Positions 4,858 through 48,608 of a DNA stretch of 64,000 bases are shown in pieces. Position 1 is the first letter of the stretch. The number at the start of each line of letters is the position of its first letter. This DNA comes from Candidatus Nomurabacteria bacterium (GTDB lineage Bacteria > Patescibacteriota > Minisyncoccia > Phycocordibacterales > UBA2100). Made by a program: the position numbers and the translations under genes. The notes beneath the pieces were generated by a model, which saw only the letters and a program-made list of their open reading frames with translations, ran no database searches and was not told the origin of the DNA. Location: NCBI GenBank assembly GCA_943356775.1, contig CALRFU010000002.1:48524-112523 (forward strand), written 5' to 3'.

Positions 4858-5178
4858 TCAGTACAGTATCGCGCCGACAAATACGACGGTGTTGCAAACG
4901 AACCATAACGTATAGGTAACGACGATTGGCCACTCTTTGTGCGCGAGGCCATACAATATCCATGGAATATCGAGAAGAGCCCACATGAACCATGATTCAG
5001 GCGCGACTCCAGATGCGTCACGGCCACCGTAGATGAGAAGGATTTGCGGGATAGTCATTACCGGGCCGATAATTCCGACGCCGTAAACCATCTTGTCGAG
5101 CAATCGCTTCAAGGCCGTGCGGGCCGGATAAGGTTCAAGGTTTTTTGTTATTCGCTTGCGCAAATGAAGATGTCGCAT
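4858..5178 (-). CDS. SemiSWEET / PQ-loop family small transporter (3 TM)
   Basis: The 173-aa ORF is trimmed to the internal start MRHLHL (ATG at 5176-5178), giving 106 aa. There are three TM helices. TM1 carries the PQ motif (GPVMTIPQILLIY). The longer upstream extension overlaps the tRNA terminator and the repeat. Confidence 0.45.
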   Translation of the reverse strand: MRHLHLRKRITKNLEPYPARTALKRLLDKMVYGVGIIGPVMTIPQILLIYGGRDASGVAPESWFMWALLDIPWILYGLAHKEWPIVVTYTLWFVCNTVVFVGAILY

Positions 5179-5197
5179 TGTCGTACAGTATAAACTA

Positions 5198-5218
5198 TGC
5201 GGAGGGTGAGGGATTCGG
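5198..5218 (-). repeat. 21-bp direct repeat duplicating the 3' end of tRNA-Ser (possible att-site remnant)
   Basis: atgcggagggtgagggattcg at 5198-5218 is identical to 5337-5357. That stretch is the tRNA-Ser T-loop through acceptor 3' end plus 3 flanking nt. Confidence 0.6.
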
Positions 5219-5303
5219 TCACGGATAATTTTCTGTTGAAAATTTCCGCTACCCCGCCTCGTCTGCCTACGCAGACTCCGACCTTCGAATCCCGTCCTCC
5301 TGA

Positions 5304-5326
5304 CGCAAAAAGCGCCCAAGGGCGCC
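5304..5326 (-). terminator. terminator of tRNA-Ser
   Basis: Minus strand GGCGCCCUUGGGCGCU followed by UUUUUG, 14 nt after the tRNA 3' end. Confidence 0.5.
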
Positions 5327-5339
5327 TTTGCATCAGATG

Positions 5340-5424
5340 CGGAGGGTGAGGGATTCGAACCCTCGGTGCCTTTCGGCACACACGCTTTCCAAGCGTGCGC
5401 ACTAGACCACTATGCGAACCCTCC
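5340..5424 (-). tRNA. tRNA-Ser (anticodon GGA), class II with long variable arm
   Basis: Reverse complement reads GGAGGGT-TC-GCA-TAGTGGTCTAG-TGC-G-CACGC-TTGGAAA-GCGTG-TGTGCCGAAAGGCACC-GAGGG-TTCGAAT-CCCTC-ACCCTCC-G. The 7-bp acceptor stem, 3-bp D stem, U33 and A37 are all present. The anticodon is GGA. CCA is not encoded. An extended -10 (TGATATAAA) lies just upstream at about 5436-5444. Confidence 0.85.
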
Positions 5425-5509
5425 GTGCAAATGATTTATATCACGCCCCTGCTGCACTCGCACCTTTCCAAACACTATCGATGATTTAATCTTTTGAGAC
5501 TGGCTGATA

Positions 5510-6010
5510 TCAAGGCTTCTGCGTGGGCGTACGGTGACGACTCATTGCTTCACGAATACGTATCCGGCGCTCTCTGAGACGCGCCCGTTGAGCAACAAAC
5601 CGGGCGCGCAACCTGTGTTCAAATTCTTCTGCTTTGTGTGAAGCAAACCAGCCGATGGCCGCCAGCATTACGTTGATCGAGAGGACGAGACCGAATACGA
5701 GTACGAAATCTAATTCCGATACTCCTTGCACCAAAAGAAATGTCGGGATGAAACTCGCCATGCCGACGACGACATCCATAAAGCGGTTCTGTGGTGTCTC
5801 TTCAATTTTTACCATCGCTTCCCAGAGCTCGTAGGCCACAAAGAGCAGGAATGCAATAAGCGCTGATGCCTGAAAACCGAAACCAAGCCACGCGATTGCA
5901 AAAGCAGTAGAAGAACCTGAAAGAAAATGTACGACGCTCCAGAGGTCAACCCATTTCCCCTCCCGCCAGATATCGGTACGCTGAAACCTCCTGTCGGGCG
6001 TCAGGTGCAT
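5510..6010 (-). CDS. hypothetical membrane protein
   Basis: 166 aa with 3-4 TM segments and an Arg-rich C-terminal tail. No family recognised. Confidence 0.5.
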   Translation of the reverse strand: MHLTPDRRFQRTDIWREGKWVDLWSVVHFLSGSSTAFAIAWLGFGFQASALIAFLLFVAYELWEAMVKIEETPQNRFMDVVVGMASFIPTFLLVQGVSELDFVLVFGLVLSINVMLAAIGWFASHKAEEFEHRLRARFVAQRARLRERRIRIREAMSRHRTPTQKP

Positions 6011-7523: not shown

Positions 7524-10500
7524 TTATTGTACCGTCACGATAGCTTGTGCCGATGTGGTCGCGCCGGAGGGCGCACTACAATCGAGCACAAAGCGCGTCG
7601 TCGTGGCAAGCGCGAGCGTAGAGGTCGAACCGCGCGTTCCTGTCGCCATTGAGATATCCCCCGGCGCAAAGAGCTCGCAGCTCGACGTGTTGACACTCGA
7701 CCACGTGAGCAGTGACTTCCGTCCAGACAAGAGGCTGGTCGGATTCGCTATCAGCGTGACATATGGCTTCGGAGGTGTGGGCGTCACGACGGGCGGATTC
7801 GTTGGCTGCGTCGTAGGCGGAGTTGTTGGAGTAGTTTGTGGTGCTTGAGACCCTCCAAACAATTTACTCAATGCGCCGATGAGTCCGCTCAGCATACCTC
7901 CCAAGCCACCACCTCCCTGACCCGGGGTTTGTCCACCCTCAGGAACATTTATATCGGATGGCCCGCGCGTCACGACTGGTGGGACATAGGGAGGAGCCTT
8001 CTTCTCTGGAGGCGGGACGACAACGGGCGGATCTTTAGGGGGCACAACGGGAACTACTGGTGGCGGAGTTCCAGCACCTGGTGGTGGAATAACCACTGGT
8101 GGCGGAGTCCCGCCCGAACCATCTTTGAATGTAAAGTGAGCGATAGGAAGCGCCGCAACGACACCTCCCGCTATGGTCTTCTTTGGGTTCTCCGCCACCC
8201 AACTACCGACACTCTGAAGCCACGAGGGTTGCTCCGCCGCAGTAGGAGGAATAAGCGCATTGAATTCTGCTTCGGTAAACTTTATCCCAGTTAGGACTTC
8301 TAGTTGCTCTCGCGAAAGAGGAGCAGCTTCTGGTTGTGCGGCGGCGGTTCCTGTATTTCTCGGTTCTGGAACCACTTTCGGTTCGACTTCGAATACACCC
8401 GTCACCGGATTTTGTCTTGTCTCAACAATATCAGCGGGATTTAGTGGACGCTGCGCAACTCCCGCAGAGGGAGGTACGGCTGTTTCTTCGACAACTAATG
8501 GTCTCGAAGGTCCAACTTCGTTGGCTGCTGTACGGACGGTAGGAACGGACTCAGGCACTGTGGCTGCTGGCGGCTCTGGAACTTGTTCGTATCTCCCCGT
8601 TTTTGGATTTAGGTAAAAGTTGTCGAGATTTGTGCTGCCGCTCGGTACTGGTTCACCGGGCGTCAGACGCTCCACGACAGGTGCGGCGGTCGGAGTCTCA
8701 TTGACCGTTCGACCCCAGAGATTACTCCACGCGTCGGACGCAGAATTTTTGAGATCGTTCCACGCAAGCTGTATGTTATCTCCCGTGCGCGAGAAAAATG
8801 ATTTTTGCTCAAGAGGTACATCGAATATTGTGTTTGAGCCGGGTATCTGCTTAAGGGGTCTTACTTCACCCGCGAGTCCGTCGGCAGCATTCCGCATACG
8901 GTCTGCGAGTTCTTGTTGTCCTTTTTGCGCCACGAGGTCTGCATTTTGGCGCAGTGCCGCAAGACGCTCTGATGACCATACTTCCGCATTTCCCGCTCGC
9001 ACTTCTTGCGCGCCAGTCTCAAGCGTTTTGACAAGGTCGTCGAGCGCTTTTACTTGTGGACTCACGTTTGTAGGAAGTCCCGCATTGATATTCGCAGCAA
9101 CATCTTCCAGTGCCTTCACACCCACATTTGGTTCGGAACGAGAAGCGATATTGACATCGTCAACCGCCCGCGCGAGGTCTCTTTCAAGATTTTGAAGTCC
9201 TTGATTCGTGATGTCCCGTGGCGCCTGCTGAGTCGTCGCTGCTCCAATGCGCTCTGCTTCCGGAGCCACTCTTGGAGCTGGTTGCGCGCTGGCGCGTGCC
9301 GCCTGTGCGTCAATGAGTGCGATATCGTCGTTGACTACCCTTCCTGGCACAGCAAAGTCGTCCGCCCATTGTTGTATTTTCACTCCAGGCAATTGTGTAT
9401 TCGTTGGAATCACCCCTGGTACAGAAGTAGGCGTCTCAAGAGGGCGAACGCCACGATTGATGTCCGCAAGCGCATTCGCAAGGCGTTCTTCCGAACTGAG
9501 AATAGGCGAGGGCGTTACCCCAGCAGCAGGAGGCGGAACCTCGCTAGGGATTATCGGCGACCTCTCTGAAGCTGCACGGACTTCAGCGATGGCATCTTGT
9601 ATTTTCTGAACTTCTGGACTGACCGTCGGTGGTGCTTCAGTAGGAGGTACGGCCGGTCTCTCTGAGGCCGCCGCGCGAGTCTCGACGGCGATTCGGTCTA
9701 TCGTCTGCTGCAATTCGGCTGTCGGAGGCACTGGTCGCGCCGCCCCCGCATCTCCAGCCAATTCCCTACCCACTGCTTCAATACCAATTTCGCTCGGGTT
9801 CCGCGGAGCGACGATATTGGTGACCGGCAGATTATCTCCCACCTCACCTACTCTTACCCCGGGTAGTCGAGCCTCAGCGACGGCTACTGCAGGCACGTCG
9901 GCGACCTGCGCGAGTTCGGAACCCGCGCGCGGGAATACCGACTCCGAAAAACGACCAGGCAGAGAAAGAAGCTTCGGGGTTACTTGGGCGAGGTCTTTTG
10001 CAATCCATGCCGCCCCTATTACGTTTACCCCATGTCCAACCGCCTCGATTGTGCAAGTCGTTTGCCCGACAGCGCCGCAGCGCGCAGCCTCAAGCGTCGT
10101 TGGATTGAATCCGAGAGATTCTGGCGCAAAGCGCTCCGCAACGATTTTAGTTTCTTCGGCTAAACCACCCCAAATGAGATTTCCCGCTGCGGGAACCGCT
10201 CGCCACGATTCGAGTGCAACTCCTCCCCAATCCCCCTTTTGGTAGCTTTCCGATATGGGCGTCCACCAGTTTCCCGCGGCTTGGAGATACGGTTTTGCGT
10301 AAGCGTCGAACGTTGCGGAAGTAGGGCCTTGACCTTTTTCCATTGTGCCCAGCGCTTGTTGGAGGTTAGGGCTTAGTTCGCCGCCTCTTTTGTACGCCTG
10401 CAAATCGTTATAATTTTTCCATATCTGGTCGTATTTTGCTTGCTCTGTCTGAACACCAATGTTATATGACTGATACGTCCGACAAGACCTCCCGGAAGGA

Positions 10501-13500
10501 GCGCTCGCACAGGCTGCTACCCCCCTGTCGATTGCTTCCTCTCCCCAGGTATCGCGCATATTCTGTAACGCCGTGTACTGTTCGCCGAGCTTGTTGAGTA
10601 TCACCTCCTCCTGCTTACTAACGGTTTCTGACTTGAAGGATACTCTGTCGGCAGGCACTCCCGTTGCTAGGGGTATTTCTGCGGCTGGTTGCGGCGTAAC
10701 TACCGGCGCCTCAGGAGCATCGACTTTTGGAACTTCTGCCTGCACAACTATTGTCTGTTCCGTCGGAGGCACCCCAGGAACTGCCGAAAATTCCGGAACC
10801 GGGAGATCGGAAGCGGCAACCGTACGCACTACCGGAGGCTCCCACTTCCCTACTGCCTGGTCGGGAACGGTGACGGCGGCGACTTGTGTCGCTTCAGCCT
10901 GTACGCCTCTCGCATACTGGTCCGCGCGACTCGCCGTCATGCGAGCCTCGTGTGCGTCCCAGCCGACGCTGGTGGCTTCCCCTCGTAGAGCAGTCGCGGC
11001 AGACTGAAGTGACGTGTATTCCTTCTGAAGTACGGCCGGTGAGTCTTCGCCCGTGATAGGCGCTTGACCGGTTGCGATAATACCTCGAGCCGCGACAGCC
11101 GCATTGTCGGCCAAGGCAAGGCCGCCTGCATCTAAATTAGCGATAGCAGCCGTCAAACCAGCTTTGTAAGATTGCACTTGGGCAATCTGTGTATTAATAG
11201 ATGCTCTGTCTTCGGCATCGAGCAGAGGATTCTTGGCAAGCGCCTGAGCGTTGGTAATTACTGCGCCGAGCTGGTCCACAGCCGCGTTTGCCGGCACAAG
11301 CGCAGCCACAGTCGCGCCCATACCCTCAGCCTTTGCCTTTAGGGCAAGCGCTGAATTTAATGAACTCCTTACTTTTTGCACATCAGCGGCGAGCTTATTC
11401 GCTTCAGCCAGCTCCTGCTTTTTTTCGTCTGCCACCCTTTGCGCTTCGGCGGCTTTTGCGCGGGTTTCTCGTTCTTGCTGACTCAGGTTGTCTGCATTCT
11501 CTCGTGCTGCAATCCGGAGCGCTTCGGCATCCGCAATCTTTTTCCGCTGTTCTTCTGCTGCCGCACGCTGCTCCTCCGCAGTTTCGGAGACGGGCGCCCC
11601 TGAGGCATCGGCGATTCTCTTTGCTTCCTCTGCCTTCGCTATCTCGCGAAGTCTTTCTGATTCTGCGTCGAGTGACTTTTGTATCTCTTCCGGCGTAAGT
11701 GCGATGCTTTGAGTCTGTCTCTCTATATCCTGGATGCCTTGCTCCAGTCGCTGCTGATACGCGGCGGTTTCCTGGTCAGCTTGTGCAAGTCGAGCTTCAA
11801 GTTGCGCCCTCTCAGCAGCTTGTATTTCTGGGGACGGTGCCTCGACGGTTTGCGGCGCCTCAAACGTTACCGTTGGCACCTCTCGAGTTGCGCTCGGTTG
11901 CGGTTCATCGGCTGGCACCTCTGCGAAAGTCGGCGCTTCAGGCTCGGGAGTCGTACCGAATAATGACGCGACTTTCTCGGAGCCCCAGTTCCATATGCTT
12001 TTGCCCGCATCCGCCACCGCATTAGCGGCATTACTGAGAGTAGTCAGAGCGGAAGGCGCGGGAGCAGCGGGCGCTGGCGGCTCTGGTGAGGCAAGCCTGC
12101 GCTCTTCCGCAAGCTGCGCTGTCCTCTGGTCGAACTCGATGCCTTGCACGGCGCTATCACGCGCGAGCTGCTGACTCAGCGGTGTCATTTTGTCGTATTG
12201 GTCGAGCGGAATACTTTGTGCGATACGCTCTCGTATTTGAGCCTCAGGTATTTGTGGTGTATCAACCTTCGGAACTTCAACAGACGCCACGGGGACATCT
12301 GGCGTATTCACACCCCCCACAGGAGGTGGCGGCGCAATCTCTGGTGTCACGCTGACTTCCGGTTGCGCATCAGGGACAAAGACCAAAGGGTTCGAGATGA
12401 CGCGGTCTTGATCTTTCGGCATATCCGCTACCTGATTCTGTACGGACTGCACCATTTCGGTAAACGTCAAAGCTTGCGCCACGTCGGCGGGGATAGTCTT
12501 TACATATGACGTTTCGTTTGCCGTATTGATAGTCACTTTCACCGAACCATCCGGATTGACCTGCGCAGTATTTTCACCTACTCGCACGGTCGCGCCCGTT
12601 ACTTGATTCGTCTCAGGAGGCTCGACTGCAGCAAACTGTGGCGACTGGCTCGATGCGACATTGGCGGGTTCTCCCGCAAGAGCGATGCTACGCGTATTCG
12701 TATCGTTCAAGAACTGCTGCGTGATAGCCGCTGAACTCGGAAGATCTGTGTTGGCAACAGAAGCAATATTTCCACCACTACGGAAAGGGTTGTCACGCGG
12801 CAATGGCACATCTGCGTTTGAGGCAACGTTCGTCTGGGGTGTAGCAGTGTTGTCACTTGGCTGATAAGCAGCATAGGCACCGGTATTTTGTTCCACTGCA
12901 GCGAGCGCATCCGATGGCGAGTAGCCACCGGTTCGCGCTTGCACGTACGAGTTTGCGGCTTTCGCGGCGGCTGTATCGGCATACCACCCATCACCAGCGA
13001 CTTTTCCTTGTATTACGGCTTCGGGTGTAAATCGTACGTCAAATACACCGTCCCGAACATATTTGATACCGGTCTCTACTTGCACTTCAGCAACTGTTGA
13101 TCGTGGGAGGTCGGCGCCGACACCCGGCCCGAGATTCCCCCAATCATTCACATACATCTGCCTTGTAGCTACGACGTTGCCATCTTTATCGAGAAATTCC
13201 ATCGTGCCAGCGGTCCCGATGGGATAGAGTGACGAAGCAAAACCGCTCCCGTTGAATTTTTCACCCGAACCTGTGCCTTGAGCAGTGTAGAAAGTTGCCT
13301 TGAATTCCGCGGGGCCATCCAATCCCGTTACCCTATCGGCGTCCGCGCGACTGGGCGGTCCTTGCGCCTCAGTTAAGCGAGCATCCGAGGGAAGGTAGTA
13401 CCCTCCTTTGCCATCCGGAACGAGAGCGGAAAACGGCTTACGCGTTGTCTTCTGAGCCGCCTCCTCAAGGGCTTCGCCATACGCGCTGCTTACTCTTTCT

Positions 13501-14249
13501 TGCATACAGCTCCACCAACTATCGCAGGCCGACGTTTGAGATGTTTCTTGTTCTTGGTTTCCTGCAAATGTGGAATCTGAGTTGGTCATTGTATTCTGCG
13601 GGCCGACATCTTGTGATATCAGATTTCCATTCTGGTCACGCGGCTGAAGCTGGAACGATTGCTGATTTGGATTGAGTGGCGTCGGTGAGAAAAAGCTTCC
13701 TATCTCTTCGCGGACTTTGCCACCCAGCCCTGGATTCGCATCTATCTGTTTCAAAAGTTCCCCGACAGAATTCGCCGACGGCGACAATTCAGTCTTTTGC
13801 TGAGAGAGTGGTGTCGAGTCAAACATCATCTGCTCCAAGAGCGACCGATTGGTCGGCGTCGGCTGTTGCGTTTGCGTCGCTGGAGGCTGACCTCCTGTTA
13901 CATCTCCGGCATCAGAAATCGACGGCGGTGGGACAGTGGGCAAAGCGCATGGCTTGCCGCCACAGAATGCGGCTCGGCACACACGAGCTTCGACACAGAT
14001 ACCGTTCGCGGCTACTTGTTTGCCCTCTATGTCCTTACAGATGGTTCCGTACAAGTTGAAGAATTTCTTTCCATTTTCTTCGAATTCTGCGAGCTTCGGC
14101 CTATCGCTTCTATACACATTCGTGGCGGTGGCGAGCGGACACATGTCATCCGCTTCATCGGGATTTACTTCTGCAAAAGCGGGATTGAGAAAGGAAAAAA
14201 GCGCGAGAAAAATTAATACAACAAGAGATGCCCGCAAGGCGGTCGACAT
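7524..14249 (-). CDS. giant secreted/surface protein (2241 aa) with an RlpA/3D-like double-psi beta-barrel domain, a long coiled coil, proline-rich linkers and a C-terminal Ig-like domain
   Basis: Signal peptide MSTALRASLVVLIFLALFSFLNPAFA, then a Cys-rich N-terminal module. The segment FKATFYTAQGTGSGEKFNGSG...PIGTAGTMEF...VNDWGNLGPGVGADLPRS resembles RlpA/3D-domain proteins (ATAYTA...VNDRGP...DLS). About 250 aa are A/E/Q/K-rich coiled coil. There are PPPVV proline tracts, then a C-terminal beta-rich domain ending TVQ. The ORF is uninterrupted. Confidence 0.8.
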   Translation of the reverse strand: MSTALRASLVVLIFLALFSFLNPAFAEVNPDEADDMCPLATATNVYRSDRPKLAEFEENGKKFFNLYGTICKDIEGKQVAANGICVEARVCRAAFCGGKPCALPTVPPPSISDAGDVTGGQPPATQTQQPTPTNRSLLEQMMFDSTPLSQQKTELSPSANSVGELLKQIDANPGLGGKVREEIGSFFSPTPLNPNQQSFQLQPRDQNGNLISQDVGPQNTMTNSDSTFAGNQEQETSQTSACDSWWSCMQERVSSAYGEALEEAAQKTTRKPFSALVPDGKGGYYLPSDARLTEAQGPPSRADADRVTGLDGPAEFKATFYTAQGTGSGEKFNGSGFASSLYPIGTAGTMEFLDKDGNVVATRQMYVNDWGNLGPGVGADLPRSTVAEVQVETGIKYVRDGVFDVRFTPEAVIQGKVAGDGWYADTAAAKAANSYVQARTGGYSPSDALAAVEQNTGAYAAYQPSDNTATPQTNVASNADVPLPRDNPFRSGGNIASVANTDLPSSAAITQQFLNDTNTRSIALAGEPANVASSQSPQFAAVEPPETNQVTGATVRVGENTAQVNPDGSVKVTINTANETSYVKTIPADVAQALTFTEMVQSVQNQVADMPKDQDRVISNPLVFVPDAQPEVSVTPEIAPPPPVGGVNTPDVPVASVEVPKVDTPQIPEAQIRERIAQSIPLDQYDKMTPLSQQLARDSAVQGIEFDQRTAQLAEERRLASPEPPAPAAPAPSALTTLSNAANAVADAGKSIWNWGSEKVASLFGTTPEPEAPTFAEVPADEPQPSATREVPTVTFEAPQTVEAPSPEIQAAERAQLEARLAQADQETAAYQQRLEQGIQDIERQTQSIALTPEEIQKSLDAESERLREIAKAEEAKRIADASGAPVSETAEEQRAAAEEQRKKIADAEALRIAARENADNLSQQERETRAKAAEAQRVADEKKQELAEANKLAADVQKVRSSLNSALALKAKAEGMGATVAALVPANAAVDQLGAVITNAQALAKNPLLDAEDRASINTQIAQVQSYKAGLTAAIANLDAGGLALADNAAVAARGIIATGQAPITGEDSPAVLQKEYTSLQSAATALRGEATSVGWDAHEARMTASRADQYARGVQAEATQVAAVTVPDQAVGKWEPPVVRTVAASDLPVPEFSAVPGVPPTEQTIVVQAEVPKVDAPEAPVVTPQPAAEIPLATGVPADRVSFKSETVSKQEEVILNKLGEQYTALQNMRDTWGEEAIDRGVAACASAPSGRSCRTYQSYNIGVQTEQAKYDQIWKNYNDLQAYKRGGELSPNLQQALGTMEKGQGPTSATFDAYAKPYLQAAGNWWTPISESYQKGDWGGVALESWRAVPAAGNLIWGGLAEETKIVAERFAPESLGFNPTTLEAARCGAVGQTTCTIEAVGHGVNVIGAAWIAKDLAQVTPKLLSLPGRFSESVFPRAGSELAQVADVPAVAVAEARLPGVRVGEVGDNLPVTNIVAPRNPSEIGIEAVGRELAGDAGAARPVPPTAELQQTIDRIAVETRAAASERPAVPPTEAPPTVSPEVQKIQDAIAEVRAASERSPIIPSEVPPPAAGVTPSPILSSEERLANALADINRGVRPLETPTSVPGVIPTNTQLPGVKIQQWADDFAVPGRVVNDDIALIDAQAARASAQPAPRVAPEAERIGAATTQQAPRDITNQGLQNLERDLARAVDDVNIASRSEPNVGVKALEDVAANINAGLPTNVSPQVKALDDLVKTLETGAQEVRAGNAEVWSSERLAALRQNADLVAQKGQQELADRMRNAADGLAGEVRPLKQIPGSNTIFDVPLEQKSFFSRTGDNIQLAWNDLKNSASDAWSNLWGRTVNETPTAAPVVERLTPGEPVPSGSTNLDNFYLNPKTGRYEQVPEPPAATVPESVPTVRTAANEVGPSRPLVVEETAVPPSAGVAQRPLNPADIVETRQNPVTGVFEVEPKVVPEPRNTGTAAAQPEAAPLSREQLEVLTGIKFTEAEFNALIPPTAAEQPSWLQSVGSWVAENPKKTIAGGVVAALPIAHFTFKDGSGGTPPPVVIPPPGAGTPPPVVPVVPPKDPPVVVPPPEKKAPPYVPPVVTRGPSDINVPEGGQTPGQGGGGLGGMLSGLIGALSKLFGGSQAPQTTPTTPPTTQPTNPPVVTPTPPKPYVTLIANPTSLLSGRKSLLTWSSVNTSSCELFAPGDISMATGTRGSTSTLALATTTRFVLDCSAPSGATTSAQAIVTVQ

Positions 14250-25003: not shown

Positions 25004-25693
25004 ATGACAAAACTATTTATTTTGCATGGATGGACGTATCAGACCGAGACATGGAAGCCGCTCCTCGGTATGCTCTCTACGCGCGGCATCGACTACGAAT
25101 TTCTCCTCATTCCTGGCCTCACCGATGGAACTGATCCTGTGTGGACGCTGGACGATTACGTACGATGGCTCGAAGAAAAGACCGCTGAATATGACAAAGT
25201 CATCCTGTATGGACATTCCAACGGCGGACGCATTTCGCTCGCCTACACTGCAAAGCATCCGGAAAAAGTTGAGCGTCTTATCCTCGAAGACAGCGCGGGT
25301 ATTCCCGCGCGGGGATTGCGTCGTTTAAAGAAAGATATTTTTAAGGCAATCTCACGAGTGGGAAAAATATTTATAGGCTCGGAGAGAGTTCGAAACATTT
25401 TATATAAGGTCATAGGAGTAAACGACTATCACGACGCTTCTCCGAACATGAAAAAAACTATGGCAAATCTTATCACCGCTGATCTCTCGCTCGTCCTAAA
25501 CAAGATACATTGTCCCACGCTCATTATCTGGGGTGCGAACGATGCGACAACGTTGCTCGTGGACGGCAAACGGATACACGGGGGCATCCGAGGATCCCGC
25601 ATGATTGTTATCCCCGATGCCCGACACTCGCCGCACATTACGCATCCAGAGAAAATGACTGAGCTCATCAAAAACGAACTCGCAACACCATGA
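25004..25693 (+). CDS. alpha/beta-fold hydrolase
   Basis: Nucleophile elbow GHSNGG (YGHSNGGRISLAY). Downstream Asp/His consistent with a catalytic triad. Confidence 0.75.
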   Translation: MTKLFILHGWTYQTETWKPLLGMLSTRGIDYEFLLIPGLTDGTDPVWTLDDYVRWLEEKTAEYDKVILYGHSNGGRISLAYTAKHPEKVERLILEDSAGIPARGLRRLKKDIFKAISRVGKIFIGSERVRNILYKVIGVNDYHDASPNMKKTMANLITADLSLVLNKIHCPTLIIWGANDATTLLVDGKRIHGGIRGSRMIVIPDARHSPHITHPEKMTELIKNELATP

Positions 25694-34425: not shown

Positions 34426-35775
34426 CTACTCGGAAGGGCTTAAGCTCCAGTCTTGAAAAGCGGTAGCGTTATTTGTCACGTTAAGCGTCTCGCCAGTTGC
34501 CGCATCGAATGTTTCGTAATTCTTCACGTTACCTTGGACAAATTCAACCACGCCAATACACTTACTCAAAGATGGGCTGTAAAACAATGCTTGCGATACT
34601 GATCCTCCGCTTTTTGAGTATTCCGTCGCTGCAGCAGTAACGACGGCAGCGTACCGCGCCTCACAGTCAGCATTTTGAGATACTGTCGCGGCAATACCTC
34701 CAGGGTTCACGTCACTTACATTCTTCTCGGTAGCCGCCGGACGCGGTGTATAGTTTTCGGGAGGCGGATCATATGCCGTGTTATTTTTTAGAGCCGAAAG
34801 GTATTCGGCAAACGTCGTACCCCGGTCATTAACACATTCCGTGGGTGATGCTGGCAGAGCGCGCCCATCAACGAGCCGATGATCCGCAGATGGTAGAGAG
34901 ATATAAAGATTGATGTTTGTGCGATTGGGCTCATATAATTTCCCATCGAAACCAATCACGGCAACTTGCTTGTCATTCAGAAGAGGAAATCCGGACTCGT
35001 CTATTTTCTCGGCCGGCTCTCCCGACGCGAGCGCGAAAAGACTTTCGCCGGACGTTCTGTATGTATATCCGTTGGAGCATGAGTATACTTGTCCTCCTCC
35101 TGGAAGATCGCCCGGTGCGTACGAAGCGGTTTCGTCGACGAGTGCGAGCCAACTGAGGGGGCCACTGCTGTTGTGCAATTCCCCAAATACGTCCTGTAAT
35201 TCGAAGCGATGATCAAGAATACACTTCGATGCGGTTATAAATTCTGATGGCGTGAGTCCTGATTTTGTGGATATTTGAAATCCTGGCTTATATGCACTGT
35301 CGCCAAATTCTTCTTGCTCGGCAGGCGGCATCACGACATCTGGGACTGCTACAGCAGCGACGATAGGATGCCCTGCGGGAAATGTTTGGTGTATCGCGTA
35401 AAACGGTTCGTCGATACCGTTATAAAGATCTTCCCATGACTTGAAGTCTCTACAATCTGTAAAATTTGCAACTGAAAAGACCTTCGATCCATTTTTATTA
35501 AGTTCGACTTGCGCATACACGCACGTACGAGATTCGATTTGTCCACCATATGTTTCGCTCATTGAGTTTCCGGTCGTGACATTCCAAGACAGGTTTTCTC
35601 CACATGAGAATGCAGCAGCCTTAGATTCTTCAGGTCTTGACCAAAAGTATGTGAGAAGTCCGACAGCAACGATGAGACCGACGATGACAAGTCCTGCAAG
35701 AGCATATTTTGACGTACCATGATCGGGTGCAACGATCGGCGCTGGTATCGTTTGCAGTTCGGAGGCAGGAGGCAT
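34426..35775 (-). CDS. hypothetical membrane-anchored extracytoplasmic protein
   Basis: 449 aa with one N-terminal TM, many N-x-S/T sequons and several Cys. No family recognised. Confidence 0.55.
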   Translation of the reverse strand: MPPASELQTIPAPIVAPDHGTSKYALAGLVIVGLIVAVGLLTYFWSRPEESKAAAFSCGENLSWNVTTGNSMSETYGGQIESRTCVYAQVELNKNGSKVFSVANFTDCRDFKSWEDLYNGIDEPFYAIHQTFPAGHPIVAAVAVPDVVMPPAEQEEFGDSAYKPGFQISTKSGLTPSEFITASKCILDHRFELQDVFGELHNSSGPLSWLALVDETASYAPGDLPGGGQVYSCSNGYTYRTSGESLFALASGEPAEKIDESGFPLLNDKQVAVIGFDGKLYEPNRTNINLYISLPSADHRLVDGRALPASPTECVNDRGTTFAEYLSALKNNTAYDPPPENYTPRPAATEKNVSDVNPGGIAATVSQNADCEARYAAVVTAAATEYSKSGGSVSQALFYSPSLSKCIGVVEFVQGNVKNYETFDAATGETLNVTNNATAFQDWSLSPSE

Positions 35776-35813
35776 AGTCGTTTAATTATACCAGCTTTAA
35801 ATTGCGAGTTGCC

Positions 35814-37580
35814 CTACCGAATCAAGTCTCTAATCCTCGCTCTGATTTTATCAAGCTGAAAATTGAATCTTTCCGCGGCAGGCTTTAGTTGCTCAAAATA
35901 GGCTCGATCCATTCCCTCACTAATCCGATTCATCCACCTCCCCATTTCATCAACGACCTGATTGTATATCGTGTCTTTTGTTGCGGCAGCTTTAAAATCA
36001 CCCGATGCCATTTCGGCAAGTGTATTTGAAATGTGCTCACTCTCAGATTTTGCGCTGTATATACTAAGCATGCCTGGTGGTGCTGACTCAAGTTTTTCCC
36101 ACCCCGTATATGTATATGGCGCATTATTGCCGTATAAAGTTGTTGACCAGTAGTCACTATTAACGCCCATAAAATTTGGATCTAAACTCATCGGATTTTT
36201 TCTTGTGTTATTTAAAAAATGCCCCACCTCGTGCACTCCGGTGAAAAATACATCGGCGTTTGACCTCTCCGGTGCTTCCGATATGTTCAATGTGTTCACA
36301 AAGTTGAAAGGAGATCCTAAGCTGCTGCTGTCGAGTGTAATTCCGAGATTATTTCCATTACTACCTAATAACGATATGTAAATATTCTGGGGTAACTTTT
36401 CGAAAACGGCGGAATTGAAAGTCTCTCGGAGACCCCGCGTCCACACATCTGCACGATCCGCCCAATCTTGCATTGGCAAGAGATTTGGAGTTGCGCCTGT
36501 CCCACCACCTTTTGCGTCAGCGACCCCCAAGCCTACCGCAGTTTGTATATCTGTTTGCGTAAAGCCAGTAAATGAACTGAGCGAGGGTGAAGGCACAAAA
36601 GTCATCCGATTGCCGGTGGTATCTCGAAGCTGCTGGTCATAGTTTGGTATATTATATGCTTCTGCACCCATAGATCTAAATTCTTGCAACCTATTGAGGG
36701 AAATGTCCTGTGCGATGCCTGATGTTTTCACAAGTCCATCTTGATTTTGCAGTAAGCGCAATTGTTCTTGAGCGTCAATCTGCGATGTTAGACTTTTTAG
36801 TTCAGGATTGTCCGCGATTCCTTTTGCCAATGACGAAAGGTCAACATTTCTCCCCAAGTATGCATCTTCGAGTGCCGCATATCTGGCGCGAGGATCGCCC
36901 TCGTTGATCCACTCGCGAAGTGATTCGATAGGAGTGTTTCTATCTACGGTCGTTTCCTGTCCATCTGCTCCTCGCAGAGTAATTGTTTTACCATCGAGAG
37001 TATCGTTGATTCGCAATATCTCGTTTCCTGTAAAGGCGTTATAGTAGCTATAGTCAAATTTCAAGAAATACCGTGTCTCGTCCAAATCCAGCGGACTTCC
37101 AGCTTTGCCACGAAGTTGGGCACGAACATCTTCGGTTGCATAATAATCGAGTTCTTTTCCATAGTTGCTGATAATATCTTGCCACTCTTTGCGACATGCG
37201 CCTCCCCCCATCTCGGGATTACAAGGTGCTTGCGATTTTTCGGAGATCGCTTTGCACGTACCTTCTTTATCGCAGATTCGCTCCACCTTACATGAGCCTT
37301 CTTTTGTGCAGTGCCCCTTGAGTGTATCGCCACTCGATTCTTTATCCGAACATTGCACCTTCGTAATATCTTCGAGTTTGCCGAGTTGATTCTTGCAAAA
37401 CTCGTTTGCGGATTTGCTTCCGGACGATGCCTGCGTTTCTGGTTCAGCCGCAGCACCAGCCGCAAATAAAGTATCTTTTTGTGGTTTGAAATCCATCAAG
37501 GCGATTGCAAACGAAATGAATACGACGAGAGCCGCGATTGTCAAAATCGGTAGAATCCCCCCCCCTGACTTCTCAACCAT
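35814..37580 (-). CDS. putative membrane-anchored zinc metallopeptidase (HExxH)
   Basis: 588 aa. N-terminal TM, Cys-rich region, and a single HEVGHF motif. A TATAAT box lies 10 nt upstream of the ATG, suggesting a leaderless mRNA. Confidence 0.55.
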   Translation of the reverse strand: MVEKSGGGILPILTIAALVVFISFAIALMDFKPQKDTLFAAGAAAEPETQASSGSKSANEFCKNQLGKLEDITKVQCSDKESSGDTLKGHCTKEGSCKVERICDKEGTCKAISEKSQAPCNPEMGGGACRKEWQDIISNYGKELDYYATEDVRAQLRGKAGSPLDLDETRYFLKFDYSYYNAFTGNEILRINDTLDGKTITLRGADGQETTVDRNTPIESLREWINEGDPRARYAALEDAYLGRNVDLSSLAKGIADNPELKSLTSQIDAQEQLRLLQNQDGLVKTSGIAQDISLNRLQEFRSMGAEAYNIPNYDQQLRDTTGNRMTFVPSPSLSSFTGFTQTDIQTAVGLGVADAKGGGTGATPNLLPMQDWADRADVWTRGLRETFNSAVFEKLPQNIYISLLGSNGNNLGITLDSSSLGSPFNFVNTLNISEAPERSNADVFFTGVHEVGHFLNNTRKNPMSLDPNFMGVNSDYWSTTLYGNNAPYTYTGWEKLESAPPGMLSIYSAKSESEHISNTLAEMASGDFKAAATKDTIYNQVVDEMGRWMNRISEGMDRAYFEQLKPAAERFNFQLDKIRARIRDLIR

Positions 37581-37712
37581 CGCGCATGATTATACACCCG
37601 CGAGAACATCCTTTCCCTACACCCATTGACAATTCACATAGATTCGATATTGTTCAAGATACAAATGGCCATCTAGGCCCCCGAGAAGCCCGCCGCAAGG
37701 CGGGTTTCGATT

Positions 37713-38114
37713 TTATGTTCTTGGGAAAAACTGTTGCACAAGGCGTATGATCTGTTTGAACTGCCCCTGCGGCAACTTATGCATATACCTTTGTAAACGC
37801 TTACTGCTTATGAGTCGCAATTGAGAGAGGATGACTGCCGAATTTGAATCGCCGACGGTGATTGGAACATAATAACGGTTCTCTTTACTGGAACGCGTGA
37901 GTGGCAAAACCCACAGGACGTCCCGATTGAATTTCTTTATGACTAGCATAGGGCGCTCGAAAAGCTCATTCGTACCATCCTGCTCGAATCCGATATTAAC
38001 ACCAAGCGAACACCACCAAATCTCACGCTCGTGAAAAAACACCTCGCCTTCTCGAGCATGGATTTTTTTCTTTTGTTCGTTCCACCGATCAAAATTCTTT
38101 GGTTGCATGCGCAC
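37713..38114 (-). CDS. PemK/MazF-family endoribonuclease toxin, solitary
   Basis: GFEQDGTNELFERPMLVIKK and SAVILSQLRLISSKRL align to the MazF/EndoA core (GSEQGGVRPVLVIQN, DSVILLEQIRTIDKQRL). The start overlaps or abuts the stop of the upstream serine hydrolase (TAGTG). No antitoxin-sized ORF lies on either side. Confidence 0.65.
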   Translation of the reverse strand: MRMQPKNFDRWNEQKKKIHAREGEVFFHEREIWWCSLGVNIGFEQDGTNELFERPMLVIKKFNRDVLWVLPLTRSSKENRYYVPITVGDSNSAVILSQLRLISSKRLQRYMHKLPQGQFKQIIRLVQQFFPRT

Positions 38115-39112
38115 TATTGTACCAGGAGAATATCTGCGATATCGGTGCGGAAGGTATTGATTGCGGAGTGAATTGAAGAAGCGTCAGGCGGGCGCTTGGG
38201 GTAGGTGCGATTTGAAAGAATGACAAACGCGATGCCGCGCTCGATGTCGCATACAACGGAGGTGCCCGTAAACCCGGTTTTGCCAAACACGCTCGCTCCA
38301 GCATGAGAACCTGCAAACCAAGGTTCAGCGCGCTGCCAACCGAGACCTCTTTGTGCCCCCTCGACAACACTGGGATATTTTCCTTGCAAAAGCGCTTCGA
38401 GAATATTCAAAATGTCGGGCGCATTCGAAAATAATCCTGCATGCCCCACGGCGCGTCCAGCTTTTGCGAATACACGCGCACTTTCGTCGTGCACGATGCC
38501 ACGCACTTCTCCGTAGACATCAACCTCCGTCGGGGAAATGTTCGACTTCGTAAGTCGAACATTTGGGAAGAAGGTGGTGTGCGACATCTTGAGTGGATCG
38601 AAAAAATATTTCTGTGCAAGCGCATCAAGCGACTCTCCTAGGGCGCGCTCGACAACGAGTCCAAGTAAAAACCCTGGAAGATTAGTGTATTCGGACTTCC
38701 CCGGCGGAGCATCGAACCCATGGGCAAAAATGTACGCTGATATTTCCTCAGGTTTTTTATCCTTTAGTGTCGACATTTGCACCCCGCGCACTCGATACAT
38801 AAGCAGGTCTTCAATCGTTGCCCCATGGTCGTTCTGTAATTCAGGTATGAACTTCTTAACTCCGTCCGAGAGTTCGAACTTCTCTTTATTCAGAAAATTC
38901 AATGCGAGTGATGCTGTGGGAATAGACTTGGTTACCGAAGCAAGATCATAGATTGTGTCCTCGCGAACAGCAGGCGCGTCCGTGTCATAGGTGAGATTGC
39001 CGAACGACCTAACCTCCCGTTCACCTGATTTTTTTACGACACCGACGACACACCCCGGAAATACTTTTTCCGCGATGGCTTTTTCCGCTCGAGCCTTGAC
39101 GTCGCTAGGCAT
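38114..39112 (-). CDS. serine hydrolase, beta-lactamase/PBP4*-like (class C fold)
   Basis: S-x-x-K motif ASVTKS. Start trimmed to MPSDVKARAEK (39112), which leaves a 6-nt gap to the upstream gene. Confidence 0.75.
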   Translation of the reverse strand: MPSDVKARAEKAIAEKVFPGCVVGVVKKSGEREVRSFGNLTYDTDAPAVREDTIYDLASVTKSIPTASLALNFLNKEKFELSDGVKKFIPELQNDHGATIEDLLMYRVRGVQMSTLKDKKPEEISAYIFAHGFDAPPGKSEYTNLPGFLLGLVVERALGESLDALAQKYFFDPLKMSHTTFFPNVRLTKSNISPTEVDVYGEVRGIVHDESARVFAKAGRAVGHAGLFSNAPDILNILEALLQGKYPSVVEGAQRGLGWQRAEPWFAGSHAGASVFGKTGFTGTSVVCDIERGIAFVILSNRTYPKRPPDASSIHSAINTFRTDIADILLVQ

Positions 39113-40178
39113 TTGGATAGGCCTCTTTAATTTCCTTCGCCAAGTACGGATTCCACATGGCGCCGGTTGCAGACATGACGACATCGGCGCCGGCATCGCG
39201 ATATTCTTTGAAGTCTGTGGGCACCGTAACGCCACCGCTTCCGATAATCGCGTATTTCATGCCGAATTCTTCGCGTAGCGACTTAAGGCGACGCACCATA
39301 TCGAGCCCCGCCCACTTGACCGCATGTCCGCAGATACCGCTCCTCACGCGATGAGCGCCAGGAAGCGCTTGCGTGCCGTCGGGGTTTATTACGGGTGCCG
39401 GGATGGTGTTGATAGCCGCAAAGCCATCCACTACGGTGCCGACTTCTTTTACTAATTCTCGAAGTGACGGCTCATCAAAATACGCAATCTTGATGACGAG
39501 GGGTGTATCACCTATTTTGTTTTTTATCCTTTCAGAAACGATTCTTACTTTTGGCACATCGAAACACAAGAGCTGGGCTGCGCCTTCGTTCGGACAACTA
39601 AAATTTGCCTCAACAACTTTCACGCCGGAATCCTTCAACATCTGCATACCGTTTGTCCAATCATTGATGTAATCTTCGGTCGTAAAATTCTCTTCCCATT
39701 TCGTACCTTCGAAACTGCACATCACAAGCTGTCCCGGTTTTGCGTACGCGATACACTCGCGCAGATCTTTTTGCCAGACCCCTGGCAAATACGAGGGATT
39801 TCCGAATGAATTCGTTATTGAGAGCGGCTCTTTGTATTCGTTGCGAACGACAATCGGATTGTTCGCTTTTTCGAGGGTAAGGTCGCCATCAATGTCGGCA
39901 CCAAGAACGTTGGGCCATTCGTTAGACTCACGTATGCGGCTGCGAACCGTTTTGTGCACGGGCACATCGAAACCTTTGTCGAGCGCAGCCTTCACGAATT
40001 TTGCATTGAGAAGTGGCCCAGCGGGAATCCCGAGAGGATATGAAAGCTTTGTCCCGAGGAAATCAAACCGGGGCTCTCCTTGCGGAAGGACAACTCCATC
40101 TGCAAATCCATTAAAAGGTCCTTCCTCCCAATTTTCGGAGTAGGTCTTATTGGGGTCGAAGAAGGGAGGCTGCAACAT
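39105..40178 (-). CDS. dihydroorotate dehydrogenase family protein (class 1-like TIM barrel with catalytic Cys)
   Basis: GIPAGPLLNAKF... and the class-1A-type NFSCPN motif. Start trimmed to MLQPPFF to avoid a 31-nt overlap with the HD-domain gene. The N-terminal extension is unusual. Confidence 0.7.
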   Translation of the reverse strand: MLQPPFFDPNKTYSENWEEGPFNGFADGVVLPQGEPRFDFLGTKLSYPLGIPAGPLLNAKFVKAALDKGFDVPVHKTVRSRIRESNEWPNVLGADIDGDLTLEKANNPIVVRNEYKEPLSITNSFGNPSYLPGVWQKDLRECIAYAKPGQLVMCSFEGTKWEENFTTEDYINDWTNGMQMLKDSGVKVVEANFSCPNEGAAQLLCFDVPKVRIVSERIKNKIGDTPLVIKIAYFDEPSLRELVKEVGTVVDGFAAINTIPAPVINPDGTQALPGAHRVRSGICGHAVKWAGLDMVRRLKSLREEFGMKYAIIGSGGVTVPTDFKEYRDAGADVVMSATGAMWNPYLAKEIKEAYPNA

Positions 40179-40198
40179 ACATTCAGGATACCATAATC

Positions 40199-40810
40199 TT
40201 ACTTCCCAGCGCTCGGTATCTTCTTCCACTTATTCGCATCCATATGCCATTGCGCCACATTTGCCTTTTGTAGTTCGTCCCAGAGTGCCTTTGCGGTCTT
40301 TGTATACAATTTCTTGTCACGCACGAATTTCCGCATCCCTTTCCATTTTGCCGGAAGTTTGTGGCCCTGCTCCTCAAACTCTTTGAGCTCAAGGTCGATG
40401 TCGAGATTGTCGGCATCCTTCACTATTTTCGCTTCTATCGTGTCGCGTTTTTCGTACCGCGTATGGATGTCTTCAAAATCCGTGAACGAAGTCCCTGCAA
40501 AAAGGTCACGTGCCGCGTTCGTGTCATTAGTCTTTGAATACACCTTGTGGACGTACGCGAGGTCCGCGGTGCGCGTCTCGGGAAGGTCGTGCGCAAGCGC
40601 CATCTTGATAATAGTGTCCTCATCAATCATATTCCTTTTTTTGCCCTCTTTGCGGGCAATAAGGAGCGCGAGGAAAATCACACGCATCGTGTGTTCTAAA
40701 TTGCTCGCGCATGGCACACCGAGGTGCTGTATCCACGCCCGCGGGATATTACGGAGCGATCCTATCTCAAAAAGAAATTCCAAATCGCGGCTTTTCATCA
40801 GCCGCAGCAT
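40199..40810 (-). CDS. HD-domain phosphohydrolase (YfbR-like 5'-deoxynucleotidase)
   Basis: H...HD...D metal-binding pattern (NLEHTMRV..., ALAHDLPETRTAD). Confidence 0.75.
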   Translation of the reverse strand: MLRLMKSRDLEFLFEIGSLRNIPRAWIQHLGVPCASNLEHTMRVIFLALLIARKEGKKRNMIDEDTIIKMALAHDLPETRTADLAYVHKVYSKTNDTNAARDLFAGTSFTDFEDIHTRYEKRDTIEAKIVKDADNLDIDLELKEFEEQGHKLPAKWKGMRKFVRDKKLYTKTAKALWDELQKANVAQWHMDANKWKKIPSAGK

Positions 40811-47831: not shown

Positions 47832-48608
47832 TTACAACTGCGGGTCAATAGCACCCTTAAAGCTCGCGATTTCTGCAGCACCGGGAATCATTGTTTTGCC
47901 CGTAATGAACCCGGGTGTTCCGTTGATGCCGAGTGTCCCGCCCTCTGCACGATCCGCATCTATCGCAGCCTGGTACTTCTCGCGATTGGCCGCGACATCC
48001 GCTTTTACTTTCGCTGAATCCATTCCGGAGATGCTCTTGATGAGAGTAACGATGCTTGCTTCGTTGCCGAATCCGCCATGCTCCTCGTCTTGCGCCTCAA
48101 ACATGCCCTCCCGCCATTCGTAGTACTTTGCGGGATAGAGAGCCCAGACAGCCCGGCCGTAGAGTGCTGCGGTAGTCGAATCTTCGCTCAAAAATGCGAA
48201 ATCCTTAAATACAATCTTGAGCTTGCCCGTGTCCACGTAATCCCTGATAAGAATCGGGAACGCAGGCTCAATCGGTATTTGTGGTATGCCGCCGACATCA
48301 ACCGCCTTGCAGTACGGGCACTGGAAATCAGACCAGTATGCGAGCACGACCTTCGCATCCGCCTTGCCTATGTAGGGAGAGCCCTCAATCTTCACGTCCT
48401 TAATATCTACCGATACGGTCGGCTGCGTACCACCTTGCGCAGCGGAGCCGCCGCTCTTGGAAAGTCCGAAATAGAGCCCCCCGCCGACGAGGACACCGGC
48501 AATAACGATAGCGGTAGGAAGGAAGAGTGCCGAGTTGTCACGAGTTGTATTTACTGGGGGCATATGTGGGTACATTCTACACCATTCAGGAATATTGCAA
48601 CTGTGCAT
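47832..48608 (-). CDS. membrane-anchored DsbA-like thiol:disulfide oxidoreductase
   Basis: Thioredoxin-fold CPYC active site (WSDFQCPYCKA) with an N-terminal TM. The exact start is uncertain (MYPHM or MPPVN). Confidence 0.7.
   Translation of the reverse strand: MHSCNIPEWCRMYPHMPPVNTTRDNSALFLPTAIVIAGVLVGGGLYFGLSKSGGSAAQGGTQPTVSVDIKDVKIEGSPYIGKADAKVVLAYWSDFQCPYCKAVDVGGIPQIPIEPAFPILIRDYVDTGKLKIVFKDFAFLSEDSTTAALYGRAVWALYPAKYYEWREGMFEAQDEEHGGFGNEASIVTLIKSISGMDSAKVKADVAANREKYQAAIDADRAEGGTLGINGTPGFITGKTMIPGAAEIASFKGAIDPQL

Follow-up and report, generated by a model that had tools for sequence, protein, structure and literature searches.

We analysed a window of 64,000 nt (positions 48,524 to 112,523 of contig CALRFU010000002.1, assembly GCA_943356775.1, Candidatus Nomurabacteria bacterium) with respect to a MazF/PemK-family toxin gene on its minus strand and the short region downstream of that gene. 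The downstream region contains a conserved gene for a small RNA (sRNA), encoded on the opposite strand, which converges on the toxin gene and ends over its stop codon. Judged from the sequence, we have hardly any doubt that this sRNA gene is real and linked to the toxin. The sRNA is likely to be the antitoxin and, with a little less assurance, the two genes probably form a self-contained toxin and RNA-antitoxin cassette of about 500 bp (~37626-38124), type I-like in build and inserted at the 3' end of a housekeeping operon. The first-pass annotation had described the same gene as a solitary toxin, translationally coupled to metabolic genes and lacking an antitoxin; its observations are borne out in part, and its interpretation is largely superseded.

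The features of the cassette are as follows, positions being those of the window.

37626..37631, plus strand: sRNA -35 box TTGACA (promoter scan, 10/12 match)
37648..37653, plus strand: sRNA -10 box TATTGT (promoter scan)
37659..37719, plus strand: predicted sRNA of ~57-61 nt, ends approximate (covariance models R1, 39.3 bits, and R2, 61.6 bits; minimum free energy fold)
37667..37679, plus strand: hairpin A, GGCC-AUCUA-GGCC (covariation)
37685..37708, plus strand: intrinsic terminator hairpin of 10 bp with a GCAA loop, followed by GAUUUUAUGUU (37709-37719); compensatory changes in 9/9 modelled pairs
37713..38108, minus strand: MazF/PemK-family toxin gene, 131 aa and stop (PF02452, profile match to 4mdx, AlphaFold2 model, Foldseek)
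38116..38124, minus strand: predicted toxin promoter, extended -10 TGgTACAAT, 7 nt upstream of ATG 38108, leaderless-type

The toxin gene, its start and its promoter

The toxin is a member of the MazF/PemK family in which the predicted catalytic arginine and threonine are intact. The open reading frame (ORF) matches the Pfam family PF02452 (PemK_toxin) above the cutoff of 23.1 bits, with a score of 45.9 (E 7.3e-12) over profile positions 3-109 of 109, which confirms the family named in the first-pass annotation; the MazF core blocks pointed out there, RP(M/V)LVI and ILSQLRLISSKRL, are present and conserved. It also matches phrog_9567, "MazF-like growth inhibitor" (E 1.3e-13). Searching the PDB with the single toxin sequence gave no match; a profile of 34 homologues matched B. 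subtilis MazF/EndoA (4mdx, E 2.6e-5). The catalytic R25 and T48 of 4mdx, corresponding to R29 and T52 in E. coli, are aligned to R52 and T71 of the toxin (131-aa numbering), so that the key residues have not been lost. R52-P53 is invariant in 104 sequences, and T71 is at least 90% conserved in the 34-sequence set, being Ser otherwise.

A structural model was predicted using AlphaFold2 (AF2). A shallow alignment gave a predicted local distance difference test score (pLDDT) of 54; for the final model, homologues of the Campylobacterota type were added, and this diverse alignment gave a pLDDT of 92.3 and a predicted template modelling score of 0.87. When the model was compared with the PDB using Foldseek, the top 50 matches were all MazF toxins (probability 1.0, target-normalised TM-score 0.65-0.80), and the predicted fold is the MazF/Kid SH3-like barrel. 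The family also has traits of its own, namely an N-terminal extension of ~25 aa (FDxWNxxKK) that is confidently predicted as a helix by AF2, an insertion of five residues ahead of the catalytic RP and a loop after strand 2 that is shortened. Within the extension, F6, W9 and K13 are invariant in the 34-sequence set, and W9 and K13 are at least 90% conserved across the 104 sequences. Mean column identity of the family is 64% across classes of the Candidate Phyla Radiation (CPR) and Alphaproteobacteria, an unusually high conservation. PADLOC, a library of known anti-phage defence proteins, gave no match for the toxin or its four neighbours.

The ORF had been annotated as 133 aa (37713-38114, minus strand). 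The ORF itself is real, but its start has to be moved from GTG 38114 to ATG 38108, which leaves 131 aa. Since alignments of homologues begin at query residue 3 to 6 and an extended -10 element lies 7 nt upstream, ATG 38108 is almost certainly the start. It sits 5 nt past the TAG of the upstream hydrolase gene, and the overlap between the toxin start and that TAG, as described in the first pass, therefore disappears. The proposed translational coupling is not supported either: the toxin has its own predicted extended -10, placed for a leaderless mRNA, and the hydrolase stop merely overlaps this promoter, the final T of TGgTACAAT being the first base of the TAG. The apparent coupling to the hydrolase is a by-product of the cassette landing site.

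An extended -10 ending 5-8 nt before the ATG is found in 34/78 toxin genes compared to 69/663 control ORFs (odds ratio 6.7, p 5e-12), and Shine-Dalgarno-like motifs occur in just three of the 78. Because the promoter element lies so close to the ATG and Shine-Dalgarno motifs are nearly absent, the toxin mRNA is probably leaderless.

The convergent small RNA gene and the search for a protein antitoxin

For comparison we collected 80 toxin loci from species-representative genomes, nearly all of them Patescibacteria, together with Methylocystis and one metagenome-assembled genome (MAG) labelled Gammaproteobacteria; with the window this makes 81 loci. A scan of their 3' flanks found a GC-rich hairpin 3-17 nt past the toxin stop in 63 loci, with stems that covary. 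Read on the toxin strand, a run of A precedes this hairpin in 42 of the 63 loci and a run of T follows it in none, which means that the terminator is oriented for the opposite strand. An anchored alignment gave the module on that strand as TTGAC(a/t), ~17 nt, (TG)nTAtaaT, ~7 nt, and then the sRNA itself, consisting, from 5' to 3', of single-stranded (U)ACAAAUGG, hairpin A, a CCGAG linker, the terminator hairpin and a U-tract. The U-tract of the window sRNA runs over the toxin stop codon (37713-37715). The 132-bp region downstream of the toxin, which was thought to hold only a 12-codon ORF, thus contains a conserved sRNA gene running in the opposite direction; the 12 codons are the sRNA promoter and 5' end read on the complementary strand, and they are not maintained as an ORF.

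The sRNA promoter is of the sigma-70 type and is conserved in its key positions. The -35 element TTGAC(a/t) keeps its position in 56 loci, where the spacer and the surroundings are not conserved. Conservation in the -10 element is 89% for T, 89% for A and 96% for the final T, and TG is found at -13/-12 in ~65%. Conservation is 86-98% in the single-stranded UACAAAUGG and CCGAG segments, in contrast to the stems, which change freely and in a covarying manner. Hairpin A, for example, occurs in other loci as GGAC/GUCC, as GGUC/GGCC with a G-U pair, and as GGC-UUCG-GCC with a tetraloop. The minimum free energy fold of the window sRNA is the same as the consensus structure (-26.8 kcal/mol, z -3.4).

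Covariance model R1 was built from 15 sequences of the Saccharibacteria/Nomurabacteria type, including no Kaiserbacteria and hence not the window sequence. R1 found 58 full-length matches at E<=0.002 in 615 kb, all of them opposite the toxin strand and abutting its stop, and the window sRNA was recovered with an E-value of 3e-8. Model R2 found the sRNA in 70/79 genome loci, the 3' end lying between -3 and +4 nt from the toxin ORF end in most of them. In the alignment derived from R1, 99.5% of cells are paired, with compensatory changes in 12/14 pairs (80 cells). This level was reached by 0/500 shuffles, and slid-partner controls gave 38-55% paired. Taken separately, hairpin A has compensatory changes in 3/5 pairs with 99.2% of cells paired, and in the terminator hairpin every modelled pair has them. 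The alignment is model-fitted, which favours structure, but the diversity of the stems is also obvious in the raw sequences. RNAalifold run on a plain MAFFT alignment did not recover the helices, as the stems were misaligned by indels, and the covariance-model alignment was used instead.

The linkage was also evaluated starting from the RNA. A scan of metagenome contigs with an RNA-only pattern gave 72 matches. An abutting convergent MazF-like gene was present for 62 of these, two had a more divergent toxin whose alignment ended 144 nt from the pattern match, six were on contigs too short to judge, and two had room for a toxin but none was found. The toxin is thus beside 64 of the 66 matches that could be evaluated. 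As a negative control, a looser sRNA pattern was run on viral contigs; the 20 chance matches all scored <=18.8 bits and none had a toxin. The two loci from more distant Kaiserbacteria in which the toxin is absent (L100, L101) gave no sRNA match. The spacer is 100% identical among three strains, and this was discarded as evidence because their DNA is 95-97% identical over the region.

Rfam 15 contains no family reaching its gathering score in the window or in 10 loci; the best window match had an E-value of 4.1, and the best for locus L095 scored 22.3 bits against a gathering score of 35. That this is a new small-RNA family, absent from Rfam, is a well-supported prediction. Some loci depart from the single-copy arrangement: an orphan sRNA copy is found downstream of an unrelated gene with no MazF-like ORF nearby (L039 581-635), and second copies lie ~100 nt beyond the first in L060 (4552-4608) and L090 (4502-4559).

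A protein antitoxin was searched for using the same 81 loci. ORFs of at least 35 aa within 450 nt of the toxin genes were clustered all against all, and no flanking cluster was common to more than three loci; the larger clusters consisted of ORFs in alternative frames that overlap the toxin gene or its 5' end. The genes next to the toxin differ from locus to locus in size, strand and distance. When 65 small neighbours were scanned with Pfam, 44 families were hit, with no antitoxin family among the 25 most frequent; each of these 25 occurred in a single neighbour, and they are largely housekeeping families (S12, S16, IF3, NusG, adenylate kinase). Within the window, none of 20 small ORFs, a 138-aa ORF included, matched MazE/AbrB, ribbon-helix-helix (RHH), Phd or XRE. 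The observation that neither flank of the toxin carries an antitoxin-like ORF therefore stands, both for the window and across the 81 loci, and the suggested search for an unlinked MazE/PemI-like antitoxin found none among these ORFs of the 64 kb. The conclusion that there is no antitoxin is a different matter, as ~90% of relatives have inherited, together with the toxin, a convergent sRNA gene dedicated to it; the partner that was overlooked is an RNA and not an ORF.

With no conserved flanking ORF in 81 loci, and hence no adjacent co-transcribed protein antitoxin, a toxin-antitoxin (TA) system of type II was rejected. The toxin resembles those of the type II systems MazEF and PemIK (Kid-Kis) in its PF02452 family, its predicted fold and the aligned catalytic Arg/Thr. 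It differs in its 25-aa N-terminal helix, the 5-residue insertion and the shortened loop. Furthermore, it is not the second gene of an autoregulated bicistron, no MazE/PemI-type protein gene is present here, and the partner is instead an RNA gene on the opposite strand.

The proposed antisense pairing and its alternatives

Both the expression of the sRNA and its mode of action we infer from the sequence. Of the possible modes, antisense pairing with the toxin mRNA is the one we tentatively favour, with less than full conviction; binding of the sRNA to the toxin protein is possible but on the unlikely side.

In the 3'-overlapping type I systems txpA/RatA and bsrG/SR4, the sRNA pairs with the 3' end of the toxin mRNA, which leads to degradation of the mRNA. 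The locus studied here shares with these two systems, and with Fst/RNA II of the E. faecalis par locus, a convergent sRNA with its own promoter, a 3' overlap at a shared hairpin and a compact module. An antisense RNA gene with its own predicted promoter, adjoining or overlapping the toxin gene, as is characteristic of type I, is present at the sequence level. Since no U-tract follows the shared hairpin on the toxin strand, the toxin mRNA would read into or through the sRNA gene; complementarity in cis between the sRNA and the toxin mRNA is guaranteed only if that mRNA extends past the hairpin. An abundant sRNA could then base-pair with the 3' end of the toxin mRNA, to which it is fully complementary, and so trigger degradation of the mRNA, for example by RNase III, and convergent transcription may add interference. 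If the supply of sRNA failed, through cassette loss, phage takeover or stress, the toxin would accumulate and cleave RNA.

There are also differences from known type I systems. Type I toxins are typically membrane peptides of less than 60 aa and their families are usually confined to one phylum (PMC5367252), whereas the toxin here is a member of a classical type II family and is found in Patescibacteria, Alphaproteobacteria and, in divergent form, Campylobacterota. The sRNA, unlike those of type I, contains single-stranded motifs that stay invariant from one phylum to another. An RNase as a type I toxin has a precedent in SymE/SymR, SymE being the nuclease exception among these toxins (PMC5367252).

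Several points weigh against an antisense RNA antitoxin. The antitoxin role of the sRNA is drawn from co-inheritance and architecture only. The size of the toxin is unusual, as known type I toxins are mostly short peptides (PMC5367252) and this is a soluble MazF-fold protein of 131 aa. When the sRNA was compared with the toxin start region using RNAduplex, there was no excess complementarity over shuffled sequences (mean z +0.36), which makes translational blocking at the start unlikely. The ratio of observed to expected changes at synonymous sites is ~1.0-1.3 throughout the toxin gene, so there is no extra constraint and no sign of an RNA element inside the coding region. The near-invariance of single-stranded ACAAAUGG and CCGAG across classes is not required by a pure cis-antisense mode. 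Finally, 9/79 loci have no covariance-model match, and most of these show by eye a variant RNA lacking CCGAG.

Many MazF enzymes recognise ACA-containing motifs, such as UACAU in the case of B. subtilis and S. aureus MazF. This is of interest for a type III-like alternative, in which the sRNA would bind the MazF-like protein and block its active site as a pseudo-substrate or decoy, UACAAAUGG and CCGAG being the recognition elements and the antisense overlap being secondary. We consider this alternative rather improbable, although several points speak for it: single-stranded segments that stay conserved at 86-98% while the stems drift are what recognition by a conserved protein would give, and pairing to the toxin start region does not explain them. 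In addition, ToxN and CptN share the MazF/Kid fold (PMC5086642), and the type III systems ToxIN, CptIN, TenpIN and AbiQ likewise combine an RNA partner with an endoribonuclease toxin of the MazF/Kid superfamily; relatives of the toxin described here are, as in type III, found in defence islands. The architecture does not fit, however. In type III, the antitoxin consists of tandem RNA repeats that lie upstream of the toxin gene, share its transcript and are processed by the toxin (PMC5086642), whereas the sRNA here is single-copy, downstream, convergent and separately transcribed, unlike in every known type III system (PMC5086642). A search for tandem repeats at 37300-38500 found none, and the toxin matches PemK by sequence and has no PADLOC match. 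The 5' motif is also not kept in the Campylobacterota versions. Depletion of the single-stranded sRNA motifs in the toxin coding sequence was used as a proxy for avoided cleavage sites, and no such avoidance was found. The negative results for motif avoidance and for synonymous constraint are compatible with both the antisense and the protein-binding mode.

The sRNA could also have nothing to do with neutralisation. It would then be a 3' regulatory or terminator element or an independent riboregulator, and the toxin would be tolerated as a narrow-specificity or weakly expressed RNase, or as an RNase that has been domesticated or serves in defence. Solo homologues of toxins are frequent, and exaptation of some is possible (Makarova 2009, PMC2701414), PMC8749433 refers to an E. 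coli antisense RNA that stimulates mazEF instead of neutralising it, and a mean column identity of 64% is unusually high for a toxin. We hold this explanation to be improbable. The near-obligate reciprocal linkage across phyla and contexts is the signature of a two-component module, a patchy, multi-copy distribution linked to mobile elements and defence islands argues against a housekeeping role, and the orphan sRNA copy at L039, which has no toxin, is of a kind seen for antitoxins.

A truly solitary toxin, coupled into a metabolic operon and either neutralised in trans by an unlinked protein or kept low, is very improbable. The missing local protein antitoxin would agree with it, as would the precedent of MazF-mx of Myxococcus xanthus, which like other solo toxins is a MazF homologue without an adjacent mazE (PMC4803016, PMC2701414) and is reported to be neutralised by the unlinked transcription factor MrpC (PMC4803016). 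Here, by contrast, the toxin is accompanied by a dedicated and linked RNA gene and has its own predicted promoter, and the operon arrangement occurs only in strains 95-97% identical and not in other Kaiserbacteria.

The RNA-mimicking tails of MazE are acidic. The conserved N-terminal helix of the toxin, with its strongly conserved F6, W9 and K13, is absent from canonical MazF and confidently predicted, and might auto-inhibit the nuclease domain as a cis-acting antitoxin, for which EzeT with its cis-antitoxin domain is a precedent (PMC4803016); being basic (KKK), the extension is more likely to have a role in RNA binding, and as the co-inherited sRNA would be left unexplained, we practically dismiss this idea.

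In the literature, we found no description of an sRNA as the partner of a PemK/MazF-family toxin, the one possible precedent being CjrA/CjpT of the C. jejuni plasmid pVir, a type I system with an antisense sRNA antitoxin according to Shen et al. 2016 as cited in PMC10470494. pVir does carry a homologue that is 28-34% identical to the toxin, with the same N-terminal extension and a convergent promoter-hairpin-terminator unit past its stop. The validated pVir sRNA, CJpv2, maps ~5 kb from this MazF-like gene, in a gap with small hydrophobic minus-strand ORFs, and CjrA/CjpT is probably a different, classical type I locus in which CjpT is not the MazF-like gene. The gap around CJpv2 (L197 1663-2132, equal to 25162-25631 of C. 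jejuni IA3902 pVir) has hydrophobic ORFs of 41 and 58 aa opposite the sRNA and looks like a classical type I locus.

Insertion, distribution and implications

The surroundings of the cassette in the window are as follows.

34407..38123, no strand assigned: accessory insert compared with more distant Kaiserbacteria (blastn synteny breaks against L100 and L101; gene tables)
38114..39112, minus strand: beta-lactamase-fold serine hydrolase gene (PF00144, E 9e-39); context, outside the cassette
39105..40178, minus strand: DHO_dh-like TIM-barrel gene, 357 aa (PF01180, residues 177-369 only, E 2.5e-13); context
40199-40810, minus strand: HD-domain gene; context

The PF00144 match bears out the earlier description of the upstream gene as a beta-lactamase-fold serine hydrolase. 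The next gene had been called a homologue of dihydroorotate dehydrogenase (DHOD); a DHO_dh match is indeed present, but it is confined to the C-terminal half of the protein. As in the gene calls of relatives, translation of the hydrolase begins at an internal ATG (39112), and so does that of the DHOD-like gene (40178), which runs 8 nt into the start of the hydrolase gene.

For the toxin ORF and for the hydrolase alike, the closest homologues are found in Candidatus Kaiserbacteria MAGs, which places the window in the Patescibacteria (CPR). The order HD, DHOD-like, hydrolase, toxin recurs only in strains with DNA 95-97% identical over this region. It is absent in other Kaiserbacteria, which is the outcome of the proposed check for recurrence of the operon in relatives; toxins 84-88% identical are present there in unrelated locations. 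Hydrolase orthologues in the more distant Kaiserbacteria (L100, L101) are directly followed by glmS, and the cassette is therefore an insertion. A GATase gene lies between the DHOD-like gene and the hydrolase in one of these relatives (L101 4296-4991).

In the window, the insert separates the hydrolase gene from glmS (32559-34385) and has the toxin at its edge. Besides the toxin-sRNA cassette, it carries genes for a membrane-anchored HExxH protein of 588 aa (35814-37580) and for a protein of 449 aa (34426-35775). The proposed embedding in a metabolic operon is therefore not supported, as the toxin belongs to a strain-variable accessory insert and the cassette occurs elsewhere in unrelated contexts. 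The junction has left a trace in the hydrolase. Its orthologues end in ...ADILL and 1-4 variable residues, and in the window the tail VQ* is encoded by GTACAATAG, so that the last two codons and the stop come from the promoter sequence of the cassette.

Some further observations concern the insert and its neighbours. The 588-aa protein has an N-terminal transmembrane helix and a HEVGH zinc-protease motif, with no match in Pfam, PHROG or NCBIfam; the sequence TGTATAAT, 8 nt upstream of its ATG (37580) on its own strand, suggests another leaderless transcript. Three strains that are 95-97% identical over this region differ in what lies between the 588-aa gene and glmS, and this site looks like a strain-level insertion hot spot. 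At this site the window (34407-35812) has the 449-aa gene, which has no Pfam match, L009 has nothing (~8293-8300), and L099 (8292-8942) has a canonical-looking pair consisting of a PemK toxin of 113 aa (PF02452, E 1.6e-25) and an ORF of 80 aa that overlaps it by 8 nt. The L099 hydrolase (5001-5990) is 81% identical in protein sequence to that of the window (38117-39112) despite 97% DNA identity over the surrounding 8 kb, which suggests that part of the gene has diverged locally or been recombined. Elsewhere in the window there is a 2241-aa ORF on the minus strand (7524-14249).

Outside Patescibacteria, a CPR-type cassette including the sRNA is found beside an integrase in Methylocystis, and the cassette is thus mobile across phyla. 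Divergent homologues (28-35% identity) with the same N-terminal extension are present on plasmids of Campylobacter, Helicobacter and Nitratiruptor and in CJIE4 prophages. Two chromosomal copies lie in defence islands, with the order PemK-175aa / RadC / toxin / HsdM / HsdS / Abi_C in Halarcobacter (L102 2146-7396) and Bro-N / McrC / McrB / toxin / UvrD in Sulfurimonas (L103 1-6717); the overlap of these toxin genes with the end of the gene upstream is 4 nt and 8 nt, respectively. No protein antitoxin was seen at the loci of the divergent Campylobacterota-type homologues. In pVir, Nitratiruptor, Halarcobacter and Sulfurimonas (4/4), an analogous convergent promoter, at least two hairpins and a terminator at the stop were found, with a different sequence in which the sRNA 5' motif is not conserved.

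The Nitratiruptor plasmid additionally has a 62-aa ORF that by eye looks like an RHH protein (…KTIRVEDDLWDKFKKIAK…; L098 2955-3143), ~74 nt past the toxin stop on the same strand. It lies just beyond the putative sRNA promoter and may be a CopG-type plasmid regulator or a lineage-specific protein partner. Two copies of the toxin occur in tandem in L048 (255-644 and 887-1372) and 3 kb apart in L056 (4004-4408 and 7668-8051), and copies on separate contigs are found in Kaiserbacteria 53_29, Peribacteria Ike-50m-54 and others.

The pairing with an sRNA turns an "orphan toxin" into a defined two-gene module and offers an explanation for solo MazF homologues in one large clade at least; over half of the genes of the big toxin families carry a solo annotation. 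Protein-only TA finders will keep miscalling such loci. The TA typology is blurred where a toxin of a classical type II family has an RNA as its partner and a layout like that of type I. It is conceivable, though we would not expect it, that a true MazF-family endoribonuclease is held by a structured sRNA which binds the protein directly through UACAAAUGG and CCGAG as a pseudo-substrate, in a widespread and horizontally mobile TA class. If so, this class would be an evolutionary bridge between type II MazF and type III ToxN, and many annotated 'solo' toxins would really be protein-RNA pairs.

The sRNA family is found mainly in Patescibacteria, a group with almost no characterised regulatory RNAs. 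Patescibacteria are largely without CRISPR, and a reliance on restriction-modification and abortive-infection modules has been reported for them (PMC4742961). A self-contained kill-switch of 500 bp that moves between phyla would be relevant to both the phage defence and the genome dynamics of these bacteria.

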